Positions 11,952-18,204 of a stretch of 20,000 nt of DNA are shown piece after piece (the first letter of the stretch is position 1; every line of letters starts with the position of its first letter). The DNA comes from an uncultured virus (IMG/VR IMGVR_UViG_3300046455_000579) (taxonomy: Duplodnaviria > Heunggongvirae > Uroviricota > Caudoviricetes). The DNA lies in the IMG/VR virus record IMGVR_UViG_3300046455_000579. One strand, written 5' to 3'. A program made the translations under genes and the position numbers. The notes under the pieces are model-generated. The model worked only from the letters and a program-made list of their open reading frames with translations, had not been told where the DNA came from and did no database searches.

Positions 11952-12880
11952 GCGGGAAGAACGAGGCACGGGAGCTGCTCCTCGACCTGATCGGCGCGGC
12001 AGACGCCGCGAACCAAGGAACCACCCCCGAGCAGGCCGTCGACGACGCCATCCACGAGGCGCTCCTCAACCAGCCTGCGCTGCGTACCTGCCTGGTTCCT
12101 GGCTGCCTCCGCCAGTACGACGCCATCACCACCATGACCGGCGAGACCCCGCCACGGCCCGAATGGTCCGGGAAGGGATGGGCCACGCTCGGGTCCGGCA
12201 GCATCTTCCCCGCAGGCGGTCACATCTGCCCCGACCACAAGCCGTTGGTCACCGACCACTTCCCCCGCCGCCTGAAGCTCCCCAGCGACCGCTGGAGCGT
12301 CGATTGCGCGTGCGGCTGGACACCAGCACCGCAGACCTGGCACGGCGTCCTCCGCGCCCTGTGGGAGCAGCATCTGCTCACCGTGGACGGGAAGCTGCCC
12401 CCGGCGCCGCCGCTCACGGACCCTGAGCACCGGATCCCCCTTGCCGAGCACACCGAAGCGACGCTGGCCGAGCTGTACGACCGGCTGTGGGACGCCGAAG
12501 CGGACCAGCAGGAGACCCGCGACGTCGCCCGCGCCTGCATGGTCACCTACACGGTCGCCGTCCCCGCCCTCCTGGGCGTCAAGACATCCCTCGAAGCCCT
12601 CCGCACCCGCATCACCCTCGACTCCCGCGACTGGACCGCCGACAAAGTCGATGCCCTGCTCTACGCCGTCCTCGTCGGAGCGAACTGCGAGGACGACACC
12701 CCCGGGCACGTCCACAACGACATCGACTGCGCCAGCGACCAGGGCCTGTGGGACCTCGCGAAGCAGCACGACATCCCCACCGACCAGACCATCCAGGCCA
12801 GCCACCACCGCTGGTGGGTCGCCAACGCCATCAAGGCCGCCACCCAGATCGAGGACGCCAACAAGCCGAAGGAGAGCTGA
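11948..12880 (+). CDS. Hypothetical Cys/His-containing protein, 310 aa
   Basis: GTGA coupling; GGAGG RBS; CLVPGC, CPDH and CAC motifs. Confidence 0.8.
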   Translation: MSGKNEARELLLDLIGAADAANQGTTPEQAVDDAIHEALLNQPALRTCLVPGCLRQYDAITTMTGETPPRPEWSGKGWATLGSGSIFPAGGHICPDHKPLVTDHFPRRLKLPSDRWSVDCACGWTPAPQTWHGVLRALWEQHLLTVDGKLPPAPPLTDPEHRIPLAEHTEATLAELYDRLWDAEADQQETRDVARACMVTYTVAVPALLGVKTSLEALRTRITLDSRDWTADKVDALLYAVLVGANCEDDTPGHVHNDIDCASDQGLWDLAKQHDIPTDQTIQASHHRWWVANAIKAATQIEDANKPKES

Positions 12881-12882
12881 CC

Positions 12883-13260
12883 GTGCCCGAACAGCCCTGC
12901 CCGTTCTGCGAGATCAACACCGGTCGCGCGCCCGCCAAGTTCGTGGCCGAGTGGTCCGACGCAATCGCGATCGTCCCGCACAACCCCGTGGTCGTCGGAC
13001 ACACCCTGATCATTCCCAAGACCCACGTCACCGACTTCGCGGACGACCCCGAGGTAACCGGAGCGACCGTGCGACGGGCAGCGCAACTCTGCCGCGACCT
13101 CGACCTGGTCCACGCCAACCTCATCACCAGCAAGGGCGTGCACGCCACGCAGTCCGTGTTCCACCTTCACGTTCACCTCGTTCCTCGAGCGGCGAACGAC
13201 GGCCTGGCCCTGCCCTGGTACAGCGGCCGCAGCAGCAAGACCACGGAGGGAACCCGATGA
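12883..13260 (+). CDS. HIT (histidine triad) family hydrolase, 125 aa
   Basis: CPFC N-terminus, GHTLIIPK.H, and QSVFHLHVHLVPR histidine triad. Confidence 0.92.
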   Translation: MPEQPCPFCEINTGRAPAKFVAEWSDAIAIVPHNPVVVGHTLIIPKTHVTDFADDPEVTGATVRRAAQLCRDLDLVHANLITSKGVHATQSVFHLHVHLVPRAANDGLALPWYSGRSSKTTEGTR

Positions 13261-13824: not shown

Positions 13825-14240
13825 GTGGTGATGATCAATGGGCGGGAGTACTGGAGCACCCGCACCCCGACCAAGACCGGCTTCGCCGTCGCCTTCCCCC
13901 GCACAAACCCACGCCGCGCCGAGCCCGCAACCACAGCCCAACGACGCCGAGACGACCGCATCGCCGACCGGATGCAGGATGAGCGGATCGTCACCCTGGA
14001 GGCAGGCACGCTGGTGGTCTTCCAGCGGTCCGCGTATCGCGTGGTGGAGGTCCGGGAGATCCCGCCGGACCTGTGGGGCGAGAAGTGGGACCAGGCCTTC
14101 GAGAAGGAACTGGGCCGATGGGACTCCTGGAAGCTGGACGCCCACCCGTTGGACAAGCGCCCGTGGGGCGACCGGCCCACAGCGGAGACGTGGCGGGACA
14201 GGCCCGTCAGCGTCGTCCTGCGACCCGACCCTGACGGTCA
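13825..14240 (+). pseudogene. Hypothetical gene probably truncated at the LuxR cassette (frame stays open to 14610)
   Basis: GAGGAGGA RBS and protein-like sequence for ~138 codons, then ~370 bp running antisense through the regulator gene as Ser/Arg-rich shadow sequence. Confidence 0.5.
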
Positions 14241-15341
14241 GGCCGCCGTCTCCACCGTGACGCTCGCCTGGGGCGCCCCGGAGGCCTGCGACACCGTGTC
14301 CACGGAGGCGCTGTCGTCGACGCCGTGGTCGGGGGACAGGGCGAACTTGTACGCGAGCGCGGGCAGTGACTCCGCCCCGAACAGGCTCTTCAGCCGCTCG
14401 AGGTGCCGGGTCAGTGTCCGCACCCCGAACCCGAGCCGGGACGCGGTCGCGGTCTGGGGGCGGCCGGCGACCATGTCCCGCAGTATCTCCCGGTCCAGCC
14501 GTGTCGTCCGCACCTCGCACGCCGCGACGGGCGCCGTATCCGGTATGCGGGGCTCCCCCGACCAAGGGCGGGCCTGGTGCCAGATGTCGGCGTACACGCG
14601 GGCCATGTAGGCGACGACCGCCCGGTCCGTGACATGCCACGCCGCATGAGCAGCGGAGCCTTCGACCACATAGTCGGAGATGAATGCGTGCCGCCGGTCC
14701 ACGATGATGATCCGCTCAAAGGGTGCGAGGAGCGTCCGGTACTCGGCTCCCTCCGCGGCCATCGTCCGCGCCCACTCCTGCGTCACCTCATCGTCCCGGA
14801 CGGTGTCCCGGTACAGGGTCTGGCACCGGATCCCGCGCCGTAAAGCGTCGGTGTCCCGGCGGACCGCGGTCAGCATGTTGGCCCGCGAGCGGGGGCCGTT
14901 GGGCTGCGCCGACAGGATCTCCGAACGTGCCGCACCGACCACGTCCTGGATCCGGGCGTTGACCGTCTCCGGATCGGGAAGGAACTGCGCACCGCCGGAG
15001 GAACGTTCCGCCGACCTTTCGAACTCCACCGACAACTGGTCCTGCACCGCCGGGAGTGCGGCGATCTGCGCCAGCCTCGATGCGGCGGCCGCCAACTGCG
15101 CCGCCGTGTGCCGGGCCATCGCCGGCCCCGGCTCCAACGCCACCCACACCTCAGGATGATCCGCATCCCGGACCACCAGACCCAGCGCCTGGAGCTTCGC
15201 CAACTCCGGGCCCCGGCCCCACTCCTCGCCCCCCAGCCCCTCACACCGGGCGATCCGCCCATACAGGCGCACCTCGGCACCCGTCAGAAACGAATCCAGC
15301 CCCTCCATGCCTGTCTGGGCAGGCGTGTTGCCCGATCTCAT
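14238..15341 (-). CDS. Transcriptional regulator: TrmB-like N-terminal wHTH, PLD-like/TrmB-type sensor domain, C-terminal LuxR-type HTH, ~367 aa
   Basis: GGGGGA RBS before ATG 15341; LAKLQALGLV; ARSEILSAQP..RGIRCQTLY..RIIIVDRRHAFI; REILRDMVAGRPQTATASRLGFGVRTLTRHLERLKSLFGAES. Confidence 0.85.
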   Translation of the reverse strand: MRSGNTPAQTGMEGLDSFLTGAEVRLYGRIARCEGLGGEEWGRGPELAKLQALGLVVRDADHPEVWVALEPGPAMARHTAAQLAAAASRLAQIAALPAVQDQLSVEFERSAERSSGGAQFLPDPETVNARIQDVVGAARSEILSAQPNGPRSRANMLTAVRRDTDALRRGIRCQTLYRDTVRDDEVTQEWARTMAAEGAEYRTLLAPFERIIIVDRRHAFISDYVVEGSAAHAAWHVTDRAVVAYMARVYADIWHQARPWSGEPRIPDTAPVAACEVRTTRLDREILRDMVAGRPQTATASRLGFGVRTLTRHLERLKSLFGAESLPALAYKFALSPDHGVDDSASVDTVSQASGAPQASVTVETAA

Positions 15342-15597
15342 CCTTGAATGTCCCCCGACAGTCGTGGCGTATGAGCGCCAGGCGTGTATACGCAAGCCCT
15401 GATGGTTGAGAGTTGTAACTCCGATACGAAAGGCTACCTGCGGGGCGCCCCCCTGACGCCCGTACGACAGATCCTTCCCTCACACCCCATGCGTCTACTG
15501 CCAGAACCGCATCCGGTATGGGGATCGCAGCAGGATCCGGAGCACGGCACCCAGGGACGGCGCCCCAAAACCTTCCCAGCGTTGAAGGGACACGACC

Positions 15598-15843
15598 GTG
15601 AAGCCTCGCCCACGCTCTCGCCGTCTGCGCCGCGCCCTCGCCGGCCTCACCCTTACCCTCACCCTCGCCGCAGGCGCCGTCCTCACCGGCGGCAGCATCC
15701 TCACCCCAGCCTCCGGCACCGCCTGGGGTGCCCCCGGCACCGACGACACCGCCTGGGGAACCCCGCCCACCGACGAACCCGACCCGGGCACCGGCGACGA
15801 CGGCAGCCCGGCCATCACCCCCTTCGACACCGCCTGGGGCTGA
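15598..15843 (+). CDS. Secreted pro-peptide with three (D/G)TAWG repeats, 81 aa
   Basis: GAAGGGA RBS; basic n-region MKPRPRSRRLRR and hydrophobic ALAGLTLTLTLAAGAVL; GTAWG, DTAWG and C-terminal DTAWG. Confidence 0.85.
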   Translation: MKPRPRSRRLRRALAGLTLTLTLAAGAVLTGGSILTPASGTAWGAPGTDDTAWGTPPTDEPDPGTGDDGSPAITPFDTAWG

Positions 15844-15866
15844 CCGACCCGGCCCCCGCACGGACC

Positions 15867-15903
15867 GGCCCGGCAGCGCGCCCCCAGCGCCTGCCGGGCC
15901 TTC
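15867..15903 (+). terminator. Hairpin terminator after the peptide gene
   Basis: GGCCCGGCAG (15867-15876) / CTGCCGGGCC (15891-15900) followed by TTC. Confidence 0.6.
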
Positions 15904-15950
15904 GTAGTACCCGGGGGAACGTCAGCCGGATTCTGCGGCAGCGTAGAGAC

Positions 15951-16394
15951 ATGGCCCCTTCCCCCAGCCCCAAGCGCCCCGCCGAGGAATCCAACCTCGT
16001 CGCCCACGCACGCCGCGAACTCCGCATCATCGGCGAAGACTCCGACACCATCACCGGCCTGTGCCGCGTCATCCGCGCCTTCGCCGACATGGGGCACTCC
16101 GGGAGCAGCGCCCACTTCGCCAGCCTCTACCTCGACAAGCTCCTGCGCTACCAGCCGCTCTCCGAACTCACCGACGACCCCGCCGAGTGGATCGACCGGC
16201 ACGCCGAGGGCTTGACGCCCACTCCGCTCTGGCAGTCCCACCGGAACCCAGAAGCCTTCTCCTCCAACGGCGGCAAGACGTACTACCTGCTCTCCGAGCA
16301 GGAAGCGGCTGGGAACATCGCCACGACGCCTCTTCACCGCTCCAAGTCCGCAGACCTTCCTGCCGAGTCGGACGAGCCGGCGGACGACGTCTGA
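15951..16394 (+). CDS. Conserved phage-type hypothetical protein, 147 aa
   Basis: SNLVAHARREL..F...GHSGSSA..L...PLS.LT....EW..QS.R...FS pattern recalled from phage hypothetical proteins; high GC3. Confidence 0.75.
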   Translation: MAPSPSPKRPAEESNLVAHARRELRIIGEDSDTITGLCRVIRAFADMGHSGSSAHFASLYLDKLLRYQPLSELTDDPAEWIDRHAEGLTPTPLWQSHRNPEAFSSNGGKTYYLLSEQEAAGNIATTPLHRSKSADLPAESDEPADDV

Positions 16395-16636
16395 TGGCCA
16401 GCGAGACGGTCACCTTGCCCATCGCCGAGTTCAACGTCAGCGGCCCTGCCCTGTTCTACCTATGCACACAGGAATACGACGGCGGTCAGACCATTCGACG
16501 CGTCGACCTCAGCGCTGCTGAAGGCATCCGCGAGCGCGCCATATGCCGGGCCCTCCTCCACCACGCCCTGGCTCTCCTGGACGCCACCGAACCCGCACGC
16601 CGAGCGCCCGTCGGCGTCGAAGACCGGAGGCACTGA
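16394..16636 (+). CDS. Hypothetical protein, 80 aa
   Basis: TGATG coupling at both ends. Confidence 0.7.
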   Translation: MASETVTLPIAEFNVSGPALFYLCTQEYDGGQTIRRVDLSAAEGIRERAICRALLHHALALLDATEPARRAPVGVEDRRH

Positions 16637-17073
16637 TGGCCAAGCATCCGAACAGCGAACGCCGCGAAGCTGTCTGCGCCTGGCTCACTGCCAACGGCAT
16701 CAACCCAAAGCACGTCCCCGCCGACGCCGACATGATCATCAGCGAAGGCACCGGCGGTCGCTTCCTGTGCTGCGAAGTATTCGACCTCACCACCGACGGC
16801 CACCGCCAGGTCGATGAACACGGCACCGGTGTCGCCGTCACGGTCATCGCCATGCCCATGAAGGTCGAACCTCCCTCGTGGTGGAAGCCGTACGAGAAAC
16901 CCACCCGCGACCAGCTCCTGGACGTCGTAGAACAGATCCGGAAACTCGCCCCAGCGTTCGAGTACGAAGCCACCGCTGTCGGCCTGGCAGAACCCGCCCG
17001 TGAAGTACTGCGGGACGCGTCACGCCGCATTCGGACCGTCCTGAACACCTTGCCCGAGAAGGGGCCACTCTGA
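16636..17073 (+). CDS. Hypothetical protein, 145 aa
   Basis: GGAGG RBS; TGATG coupling; VCAWLTANGINPKHVP. Confidence 0.75.
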   Translation: MAKHPNSERREAVCAWLTANGINPKHVPADADMIISEGTGGRFLCCEVFDLTTDGHRQVDEHGTGVAVTVIAMPMKVEPPSWWKPYEKPTRDQLLDVVEQIRKLAPAFEYEATAVGLAEPAREVLRDASRRIRTVLNTLPEKGPL

Positions 17074-17257: not shown

Positions 17258-17911
17258 TCACTGCCGGTACGGCGGAAGAACCTGCGCCACCCGCGACGCC
17301 AGCGCCTTCTTCGCCGCCCTGGACCGGGCCGTCGGCGCCCCCCTCAGCACCGGTACGAGCACCTCAGAACCCAGCACGTGCACCAGTCCGGCCCGGCCCG
17401 CCACACTGGCCTGCAACCGACCGCCCGCCACCGGAGACCCGTACACCACCAGGACCGGCCACACCGCCCCCTCCGGCAGCCCCAACAGCTTGGCCACCGT
17501 CCCCGCATACCGGGCCACCTTCTCCACCTCCCCATGCCGGTCCTCGCCACCGCAGTGAACCCGGCCGGCCACCACACGGGTCGGCCATGACCGACGCCAC
17601 GCCTTCGTGTCCAGCACCACGACCGCGGTCCCGCACGGGGAGACGAGGACGTGGTCCAGGTTCGCGCGTCCGTGGCCCGGTAATCGCCGGTCGTGGAGGA
17701 CCCGCCAGCCGTGCCAGCGCAGCCGACGTAACCGGCGGGCCGTCTCCCGCTCCGCCTTGGCGCCGCGGTCCCAGCGGGCCGCCACAGCGTCCGCACGCAC
17801 CGCATCCGGGTTCATCCCCGCCCAGGCCGTGACACGCCGCCACAGGCCCCGCCGGGCGCGCGCACGGATCGCCGCAGCCTCCCGCGCCGCCGACCCACCA
17901 GCCGCCGTCAC
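17258..17911 (-). CDS. NERD (nuclease-related domain) protein, 217 aa
   Basis: GAKAERETA..GWRVLHDRRLPG..NLDHVLVSP.G..VVVLDTK: NERD / PD-(D/E)xK signature; GTGA coupling. Confidence 0.85.
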   Translation of the reverse strand: MTAAGGSAAREAAAIRARARRGLWRRVTAWAGMNPDAVRADAVAARWDRGAKAERETARRLRRLRWHGWRVLHDRRLPGHGRANLDHVLVSPCGTAVVVLDTKAWRRSWPTRVVAGRVHCGGEDRHGEVEKVARYAGTVAKLLGLPEGAVWPVLVVYGSPVAGGRLQASVAGRAGLVHVLGSEVLVPVLRGAPTARSRAAKKALASRVAQVLPPYRQ

Positions 17912-18204
17912 TGGCCCGTCCCCGTCTGCTTCAGCCAAGCCCCCAGAGACGCGTGCAGCTCGGCCACCTGCGCCCGCGAGAGCAGCGCATCCTCCGAGTG
18001 GATCGACAACCGCAGCCACGGCCACGGCACCCCGTCCTCCGGCTGGTCGTCGCGGCCGTCCCGGGTGACGTGCGACGGGATCTTCGCCACCTGCACGGAC
18101 CAGCCTTCGTCCCGCTGGTCGTCCTCGTGCGGAAGGACGTGAGACCCCTGGTATGCGTACGGAGGATCGTCCTCGAGGTCGAAGACCGTTGCCCAGATAC
18201 TCAC
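17908..18204 (-). CDS. Hypothetical protein, 98 aa
   Basis: GGAGAG RBS; coupled at both ends; PYAYQGSHVLP..PWLRL. Confidence 0.75.
   Translation of the reverse strand: MSIWATVFDLEDDPPYAYQGSHVLPHEDDQRDEGWSVQVAKIPSHVTRDGRDDQPEDGVPWPWLRLSIHSEDALLSRAQVAELHASLGAWLKQTGTGQ

Follow-up and report, generated by a model that had tools for sequence, protein, structure and literature searches.

A candidate two-gene peptide signalling cassette with a TrmB-like, LuxR-like regulator on a Streptomyces phage-plasmid

Cell-to-cell signalling in Streptomyces is understood via small molecules such as gamma-butyrolactones. According to the accessible part of the source, gamma-butyrolactones signal between cells through a cytoplasmic receptor-repressor (PMC13454427). 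For Actinomycetota in general, signals are typically small molecules, and peptide signals that are encoded by genes and act through cytoplasmic receptors are regarded as a speciality of Bacillota, as far as the available text goes (PMC10075063). The peptide systems in question are the RRNPP(A) group (Rap-Phr, PlcR-PapR and Rgg-SHP/XIP) and arbitrium (AimR-AimP), in which a gene for a small exported propeptide adjoins that of a cytoplasmic receptor or regulator. The propeptide bears the mature unit at its C-terminus or close to it, and the peptide words diverge from lineage to lineage. In phage Rap-Phr a single propeptide can hold several pheromone copies (PMC11343458) and RRNPP-type systems are carried by phages and plasmids (PMC10075063), again within the accessible portions of these sources. 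Here we describe a locus that is alike in these respects, as read from genes alone, and is found in the phylum Actinomycetota. It lies in a window of 20,000 nucleotides, the whole stretch analysed, which corresponds to bases 9074-29073 of the 97,174-bp virus record IMGVR_UViG_3300046455_000579 (CheckV completeness 100%), and it consists of a regulator gene and, head-to-head with it, a gene for a small pre-peptide with repeated D-x-x-W-G motifs. The regulator combines a TrmB-like winged helix, a coiled coil, a PLD-like domain and a probable LuxR-type helix-turn-helix (HTH), whereas RRNPP receptors are tetratricopeptide repeat (TPR) proteins; it also differs from gamma-butyrolactone systems, where the signal is made by enzymes rather than encoded by a gene and the receptor is of the TetR type. 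An earlier note, made from the sequence alone, had proposed a peptide communication system at this place.

We consider it highly probable that the regulator and the peptide gene are a real and functionally linked pair. The further reading, that they form a peptide pheromone cassette in which the peptide is the ligand of the regulator and the receptor is non-homologous to those of RRNPP systems, stands in our view at an even balance. The genes and motifs concerned are the following, in positions of the window.

15598-15843, plus strand: gene of the 81-aa pre-peptide, GTG start at 15598, stop codon 15841-15843
15715-15729, plus strand: motif GTAWG, pre-peptide residues 40-44
15745-15759, plus strand: motif DTAWG, internal copy, pre-peptide residues 50-54
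15826-15840, plus strand: motif DTAWG, C-terminal copy, pre-peptide residues 77-81, the protein end
Pre-peptide residues ~1-38: signal-peptide-like segment by charge and hydrophobicity features
15867-15900, plus strand: hairpin 3' of the pre-peptide gene, perfect 10-bp stem 15867-15876/15891-15900, 14-nt loop, without a T-run
14238-15308, minus strand: regulator gene of 356 aa, or of 367 aa if read from the alternative ATG at 15341

The coordinates of the small open reading frame (ORF) and of its three motifs were all correct in the earlier note on re-reading of the sequence, and so was the divergent, head-to-head placement of the regulator. The first 12 residues of the pre-peptide have a net charge of +7 and residues ~13-35 form a hydrophobic stretch of about 23 residues, followed by an acidic, Pro/Gly-rich tail in which the last 43 residues hold 8 D/E, no K/R, 7 P and 8 G. 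A-x-A-like sites stand immediately ahead of the first motif in relatives. In the terminator ascribed to the gene a perfect 10-bp stem is indeed present, but it lacks a T-run, and a scan for consensus promoters and terminators called none, neither this hairpin nor the promoter-like site at 15406-15435 described below. The indexed sequencing runs listed none of the kind RNA; one metagenomic run had a 0.06 share of the words.

Short and of low complexity, and with no family in Pfam, NCBIfam or PHROGs at curated cut-offs, the ORF might be taken for a chance open frame in GC-rich DNA. When the protein was shuffled, a 4-mer occurred three times in 308 of 200,000 shuffles, so that the single sequence is only mildly surprising and the weight rests on conservation. 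GC content at the third codon position (GC3) is nevertheless coding-like, 0.88 against 0.70 and 0.73 at positions 1 and 2, and a Shine-Dalgarno-like GAAGGGA lies at 15584-15590, 7 nt ahead of the GTG. There are also 127 relatives with invariant motifs and variable spacers, and the Prokaryotic Genome Annotation Pipeline (PGAP) annotates the gene in a complete plasmid (WP_329474295.1); a chance frame is in our view refuted.

A single-sequence search with the pre-peptide returned 22 small proteins, each with a signal-like N-terminus and a DTAWG ending. In the alignment of 23 sequences no column outside the three motifs is invariant, and the spacers differ in both length and sequence; only the signal-like N-terminus and the D-T-A-W-G units are conserved. 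The description of the ORF as a pre-peptide of the exported type, in which the motif recurs and its final copy forms the very C-terminus, holds for the window, and these relatives conserve that build. With a profile that included variants from related loci, 126 proteins were found at E <= 0.01. The exact C-terminal ending D-[TS]-x-W(-G) occurs in 125 of the 127 relatives examined, which carry two (40 precursors), three (85) or four (2) D-x-x-W copies, and in 94 of them the cores are identical within the precursor. Their C-terminal endings are distributed as follows.

DTAWG: 43/127 precursors
DTGWG: 32/127 precursors
DTTWG: 25/127 precursors
DSGWG: 14/127 precursors
DTWWG: 5/127 precursors
xDTTW: 4/127 precursors
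LDTGW: 1/127 precursors
DTWQG: 1/127 precursors
Other, aberrant endings: 2/127 precursors, a 143-aa read-through and P0191, the degenerate copy in locus L003

In L003 (2449-2700, minus strand), P0191 has two DTTWG copies and a diverged C-terminus without the terminal motif, and the regulator beside it is intact; the peptide gene there is probably in decay.

Repeated short cores with an invariant Trp are also what a multi-core precursor of a peptide made on the ribosome and modified after translation (RiPP) would show, for instance one modified at Trp, with the regulator as the regulator of the pathway. Multi-core RiPP precursors and the Trp-prenylated pheromone ComX are both known. We find this reading very improbable, as Pfam reveals no conserved modifying enzyme adjacent to the gene, the genes downstream vary (Tad3-like, metzincin-like or an ORF of no known family), and the N-terminus resembles an export signal, not a RiPP leader.

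Linkage of the two genes was scored in 46 regulator loci (L001-L046), collected by a pattern-based scan with one genome per species; the two patterns bias the set towards closer relatives. Peptide genes were detected with a regular expression asking for a basic residue with 11 or more small or hydrophobic residues behind it, a GC3 above 0.55, a W within the last four residues and an acidic residue 2-4 positions ahead of that W. Applied to the 97-kb element, the detector has a single match, ORF 15598-15843; an unrelated linear plasmid, 47 kb of which served as control, gives none, and the detector recovers the orthologue in L054. Over the 46 loci (291 kb) it gives 32 matches, all but one of which adjoin the regulator. 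Among the 23 close Streptomyces loci (L001-L023), 17 carry a divergent peptide gene upstream of the regulator, as the earlier note had expected, and its word differs from clade to clade of the regulator.

DTAWG: window, L001, L002
DTTWG: L008, L009, L011, L013, L015, L018
DTGWG: L016, L019, L022
DTWWG: L017, L023
DTGWG, DTGWG, DTAWG (mixed words): L020
DTGW: L010
GDSIW: L021
DTCWC, single copy: L012

The 23 distant loci (L024-L046, mostly Kitasatospora) have the peptide gene in 18 cases, in a convergent position just 3' of the regulator; the tie between the two genes persists across rearrangements. The endings there include DTIWN, DLIWT, DISWT, D/EHQWT, EYNWS, DLHWG, DWEWQ/G and DSHW, and often one copy stands right after the predicted signal-peptidase site and another at the C-terminus. 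Of the D-x-x-W-G repeat as first described it is thus the D-x-x-W core that is conserved, but not the G, many relatives ending in W, WN, WT or WQ. On a quick maximum-likelihood tree of 43 regulators, from which the truncated or odd rows L038, L040, L045 and L046 were left out, 17 words require 16 changes, which is the minimum; shuffled labels require 26.4 on average and none of 1000 shuffles came as low. The close clade by itself shows 7 words and 6 changes. This co-variation of motif and regulator clade, likewise anticipated in the earlier note, shows, as far as the sequences tell, that the regulator-peptide pair is inherited as a unit and without swapping.

The pair had been pictured as specific to the element; it is instead part of a chromosomal family of very large size. 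Of 301 Streptomycetaceae genomes, 296 were matched by a regulator profile at E <= 1e-20, with more than 1,500 matches overall and up to six matches scored per genome. In the 30 best loci, with flanks of 1.5 kb, we judged 15 to have an adjoining signal-peptide ORF that ends in the Trp motif (a script flagged 17, two of which look spurious). In the next 40 loci, with flanks of 2 kb, an ending of the form acidic-x-x-W was found in 16/40 against 1/20 control stretches taken 100 kb away in the same genomes (p = 0.005), and a repeat-type peptide in 14/40 against 0/20 (Fisher p = 0.0024). When 93 loci were split by neighbourhood, the regulator lay directly behind dnaJ-hspR in 41, and 39 of these had the peptide (one match, in L041, looks spurious), compared with 11 of the 52 paralogues in other neighbourhoods (p = 8e-14). 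At the hspR locus the different D-x-x-W endings number about 19, always with an acidic residue and the W kept.

Endings at the hspR locus: DSAWT 8, DTIWN 7, DWGW 3, then DISWT, EHQWT, DSNWT, DSHW and others

A short word that changes this fast while its locus and two anchor residues stay the same looks like the diversification of pherotypes. The hspR-linked pair sits behind dnaK-grpE-dnaJ-hspR in Kitasatospora and in many Streptomyces (L032:3016-4220; L094, L097 and L117), and the genomes that carry the element have no hspR-linked copy of the regulator at the threshold used. In two genomes three regulator paralogues lie side by side, namely L153/L155/L157 (G003:C37:17995-20943) and L154/L156/L158 (G002:C2:285708-288649); one triple cluster has an upstream peptide gene with EDSSWN ... 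DDSSWD.

Turning to the regulator, database copies and the Atlas begin the protein at residue 12 of the ORF read from 15341, which is the second ATG. An AlphaFold2 model built on 87 sequences (mean pLDDT, the predicted local distance difference test, 86.3) divides it into the following parts, in the numbering of the 367-aa form.

Residues 13-68: winged helix
Residues 71-115: long 45-residue helix
Residues 118-256: PLD-like alpha/beta domain
Residues 281-340: four-helix LuxR-like C-terminus

A Foldseek search against the PDB places TrmBL2 (5bpd, E 2.8e-10) first, with further matches to TrmB (3qph, E 1.4e-7), to the TrmB sugar-binding domain (2f5t, E 8.5e-5) and to 5bpi, 5bqt and 5box, and it also matches nucleases of the PLD family (Nuc 1byr, NucT and Zucchini). 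Since TrmBL2 and TrmB rank foremost, the label TrmB/LuxR-type is valid at the level of the fold, TrmB-like in the N-terminal and central parts and LuxR-like at the C-terminus. At the level of families the regulator has no match in Pfam, NCBIfam or PHROGs at curated cut-offs, the Pfam TrmB family included; sub-threshold HTH_28, HTH_30 and HTH_23 matches fall at residues 285-326, together with a weak TIGR03541 HTH match. Its 93 homologues go in their sources by the names 'TrmB', 'CsgD/LuxR' or 'PLD-like', and Pfam finds GerE in 25, DUF7436 in 14, Regulator_TrmB (PF11495) in 2 and TrmB (PF01978) in 1 of 87 relatives. Neither the model, Foldseek nor Pfam shows a TPR domain, and for want of one the regulator is not a member of RRNPP, which confirms that the receptor is unlike the TPR type as had been foreseen. 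Against phage proteins, the regulator has only a partial match at 28% identity, in Streptomyces phage Chymera.

The likeness to archaeal TrmB and TrmBL2 covers the winged helix, the long dimerisation helix and the PLD-like domain, that is, the N-terminal two thirds, and in TrmB the PLD-like domain forms part of the effector-binding domain. Sequence identity, however, is 10-15%, and the sugar-binding C-terminal subdomain of TrmB is absent, a second, probably LuxR-type DNA-binding domain standing in its place. With LuxR/GerE regulators, LuxR solos included, it has in common a C-terminus modelled as four helices in the manner of an HTH, the divergent arrangement of genes and the operator-like palindromes upstream of the promoter of the signal gene, but it has neither an autoinducer-binding nor a receiver domain and reaches no Pfam cut-off for HTH. 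The earlier note knew of no characterised system with such a receptor fold, and in the literature covered, which mostly left out subscription journals, we likewise came across no account of the motifs or of a peptide system with a TrmB/LuxR regulator. A complex prediction for regulator residues 14-345 with peptide residues 38-81 gave a score of 0.01 and a mark of 0.32, and bears neither way on binding.

As the nearest solved folds are TrmBL2, TrmB and PLD-family nucleases, the PLD-like domain could sense some other small molecule, a sugar as in TrmB, a phosphate-bearing compound or a nucleotide, with the peptide as one output among others. The near-invariant residues include many arginines (R151, R162, R169, R182, R202 and R210), which fit such a ligand, as does a regulator family that is present in 296 of 301 genomes and often stands without a peptide. 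This reading nevertheless seems to us quite unlikely: the TrmB sugar-binding subdomain has been replaced by a LuxR-like HTH region, Regulator_TrmB is matched by only 2 of the 87 relatives, and neither the tracking of regulator clades by the motif nor the 39/41 linkage at hspR would be explained.

The 289 bp between the two genes (15309-15597) are conserved in 18 loci, although identity among the proteins of these loci is only 41-60%, and 8-mers are common to 15-16 of the 18 aligned intergenic regions. Three features can be distinguished in this stretch.

15366-15394: tandem operator-like palindromes of 14 bp each, GGCG-N6-CGCC at 15366-15379 and GGCG-N6-CGCA at 15381-15394
15406-15435, plus strand: promoter-like site, -35 TTGAGA at 15406-15411, 18-nt spacer, -10 AAGGCT at 15430-15435
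15442-15566, plus strand: conserved ~125-nt element with a closing 8-bp helix of GGGGCGCC (15442-15449) with GGCGCCCC (15559-15566)

The palindromes follow the consensus [T/G]GCG-N6-CGC[A/C], twice, in the 18 aligned regions, and symmetric changes are retained. This tandem pattern is unique in the 97-kb element, where a Markov model expects 0.08 occurrences; the only operator-like site found in the element lies in the intergenic region of the cassette itself. Across the 18 loci the promoter-like site keeps TTGA, as well as A and T at positions 2 and 6 of the -10 hexamer, with little or no variation. From these features we infer that 15406-15435 is the promoter of the peptide gene, with transcription starting near 15442. 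The palindrome centres lie ~54 and ~69 nt upstream of this predicted start, a distance typical of activators, and they also stand ahead of the start codon of the regulator.

For the ~125-nt element, RNAalifold yields a consensus structure in which the closing helix has the consensus GGGGCGYC/GRCGCCCC. Pairing is kept in 93.8% of cells, compared with 32-52% when the pairing is slid, and covariation is weak; the folding z-scores are -2.87 on the plus strand and -3.12 on the minus strand, and Rfam has no match in 15200-15950. We do not claim a structured RNA because covariation is weak and both strands fold equally well. The element is conserved and possibly structured, not an established RNA; it is probably the 5' leader of the peptide mRNA, and it could alternatively hold the promoter of the regulator itself.

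Put together, these data suggest that the two genes form a peptide signalling cassette, which a pZL12-like Streptomyces phage-plasmid carries as accessory cargo. The pre-peptide would be exported and cut by signal peptidase, after which a secreted protease would free short D-x-x-W(-G) peptides. These might build up with the density of carrier cells, be taken up again and bind the PLD-like sensor domain of the regulator. The regulator would then act on the tandem palindromes at 15366-15394 and alter the peptide promoter, as feedback, as well as its own promoter, and read-through could pass the regulation on to the genes behind the peptide gene, here that of a Tad3-family anti-Thoeris protein.

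15951-16394, plus strand: Tad3-family (Type I Thoeris inhibitor) gene, Pfam PF25185, E 1.6e-30, 105.7 bits against a cut-off of 27; phrog_14697

This gene also follows the peptide gene in L018 and L019, and judging from its position it may be co-transcribed by read-through and so belong to the output of the cassette. A candidate for the protease is a secreted metzincin-like protein: right behind the peptide gene of five relatives lies a gene for a ~260-aa protein with a signal-like N-terminus and the zinc-binding motif HExxHxxGxxH, and the element encodes a homologue. Metzincins of the Asp-N type cleave ahead of Asp, and a cut of that kind would liberate the C-terminal pentapeptide at once.

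L015:1463-2308: metzincin-like gene
L021:1559-2350: metzincin-like gene
L022:664-1473: metzincin-like gene
L023:141-965: metzincin-like gene
L054:5944-6723 (NZ_CP109172.1, complete plasmid): metzincin-like gene
Element 38107-38802 (= L050:2107-2802), minus strand: the element's homologue, 35% identical, signal-like N-terminus

A number of observations weigh against the pheromone reading. Binding of the peptide to the regulator is inferred, and the signal peptide was judged from simple features of charge and hydrophobicity. No transporter gene is linked to the cassette. The metzincin-like gene of the element lies ~13 kb from it, and Pfam metzincin matches are below cut-off for this homologue and for the protein of the relatives alike. 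The conserved arginines of the PLD-like domain would equally suit a phosphate-bearing ligand. Congruence of the motif with the regulator tree is equally expected from simple co-inheritance of neighbouring genes and, because relatives share labels, is not proof of co-evolution. No canonical peptide gene was found beside 5 of the 23 close homologues (L004-L007 and L014), nor any peptide beside 41 of the 52 chromosomal paralogues outside the hspR locus, so many members of the family work without an adjacent peptide. Within the precursors, cores are mixed in 33 of the 127 (4 of these being an artefact of overlapping matches in DTWWG precursors), typically with an internal DTGWG and a C-terminal DTAWG, DSGWG or DTWWG. 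The first copy is followed by the flank WGAP in 92 of 127, and the second by WGTP in 54 of the 87 precursors with at least three copies; as internal copies have conserved flanks of their own, the copies may not be equivalent units of ligand.

Several of these points would be at home in another explanation, by which the small protein is a secreted effector (surface-active, wall-binding, acting in exclusion or antimicrobial) that is merely controlled by the regulator, the regulator itself sensing something else or nothing. Adjacency and co-inheritance fit a regulator and its target as well as a receptor and its ligand, the many paralogous regulators with no adjoining peptide pose no difficulty, and internal copies with their own flanks are what short binding motifs within a longer chain would show. 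However, ~19 endings in 39 hspR loci are more diversity than expected of a motif that attaches to a conserved cell structure, and conservation limited to very short units, one of which invariably forms the free C-terminus, is as expected for released peptides. The unit that often stands right after the predicted signal-peptidase site points the same way, and the regulator is the only consistently linked gene. We therefore hold a secreted effector to be rather unlikely, though worth keeping in mind. That the cassette gates the choice of the element between plasmid and lytic states, as part of the pheromone reading, is unlikely at best, and the earlier note's proposal that the element counts occupied cells in order to gate replication, transfer or lysis gains no support from these results.

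We tentatively extend the pheromone reading, with somewhat less than even confidence, to Streptomycetaceae at large. These bacteria would possess a large undescribed family of pheromone systems, each with a soluble TrmB-like/PLD-like/LuxR-like one-component receptor and an exported precursor holding 1-4 lineage-specific D-x-x-W(-x) units. A core copy would sit by dnaK-grpE-dnaJ-hspR, with further paralogues besides, and pZL12-type phage-plasmids would have captured one channel (DTAWG, DTTWG, DTGWG and related words) for sensing the density of cells that carry related elements and setting accessory genes, here the Tad3-family gene. If true, this would amount to a second, peptide-based language in the main antibiotic-producing genus and to the first peptide-based communication system of actinobacteria and their phages, its receptor fold being unrelated to RRNPP. 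It would likewise be the first candidate for a communication system in an actinophage or phage-plasmid, and it would define a new fold of peptide receptor. The position of the chromosomal copy, next to the heat-shock operon, hints at a role in the host, and the natural variants of the word would be ready-made orthogonal pairs of signal and receptor. With a ligand legible in the genome (DTAWG) and a likely operator already mapped (15366-15394), the hypothesis lends itself to direct tests.

The element itself is a pZL12-like Streptomyces phage-plasmid. Among its 82 ORFs Pfam identifies Terminase_6N/6C (large terminase), Phage_cap_E (major capsid protein E), Phage_TTP_16 (tail tube) and PhageMin_Tail (tape measure), as well as ParB_N and a ParA-type ATPase, Rad52 and two WhiB-like proteins. 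With plasmid-phages of the pZL12 type it shares this combination, on 97 kb, of genes for phage structure and packaging with ParA/ParB. Its DNA matches patches of 17 Streptomyces plasmids, mostly of 85-94 kb, pSLE1 included, and has no match in a collection of phage DNA. pSLE1 is highly similar and syntenic to the plasmid-phage pZL12, according to the accessible part of the source (PMC4487206). The capsid is common to 34 Streptomyces and Kitasatospora plasmids, at least 7 of which carry the regulator (counted from 60 of 91 records listed), so the cassette is accessory cargo, a point of difference from pZL12-type plasmid-phages as such.

Some further genes lie near the cassette or its relatives. 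In six other loci the gene behind the peptide gene is a homologue of ORF 16543-17073. The clade L004-L007 comprises linear plasmids of S. melanogenes and relatives, with a DUF4344 metallopeptidase gene 3' of the regulator. A putative short divergent ORF there (L004:2584-2718, minus strand, and L055:15332-15601, minus strand) ends in RRDSAWGC and has no signal-like N-terminus; the loci L004-L007 are nearly identical. Just left of the window, L048:7731-8936 (plus strand) encodes a 401-aa protein that matches HTH_31 (XRE) at its N-terminus (E 1e-12) and, weakly, TPR_12. An XRE HTH joined to TPR is the classical architecture of RRNPP receptors. Two more genes of the window are the following.

17258-18025, minus strand: NERD-domain gene, kept near the cassette in 8 related loci
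12487-13260, plus strand: HIT-family gene, common to the plasmids of Streptomyces sp. W9 and W75

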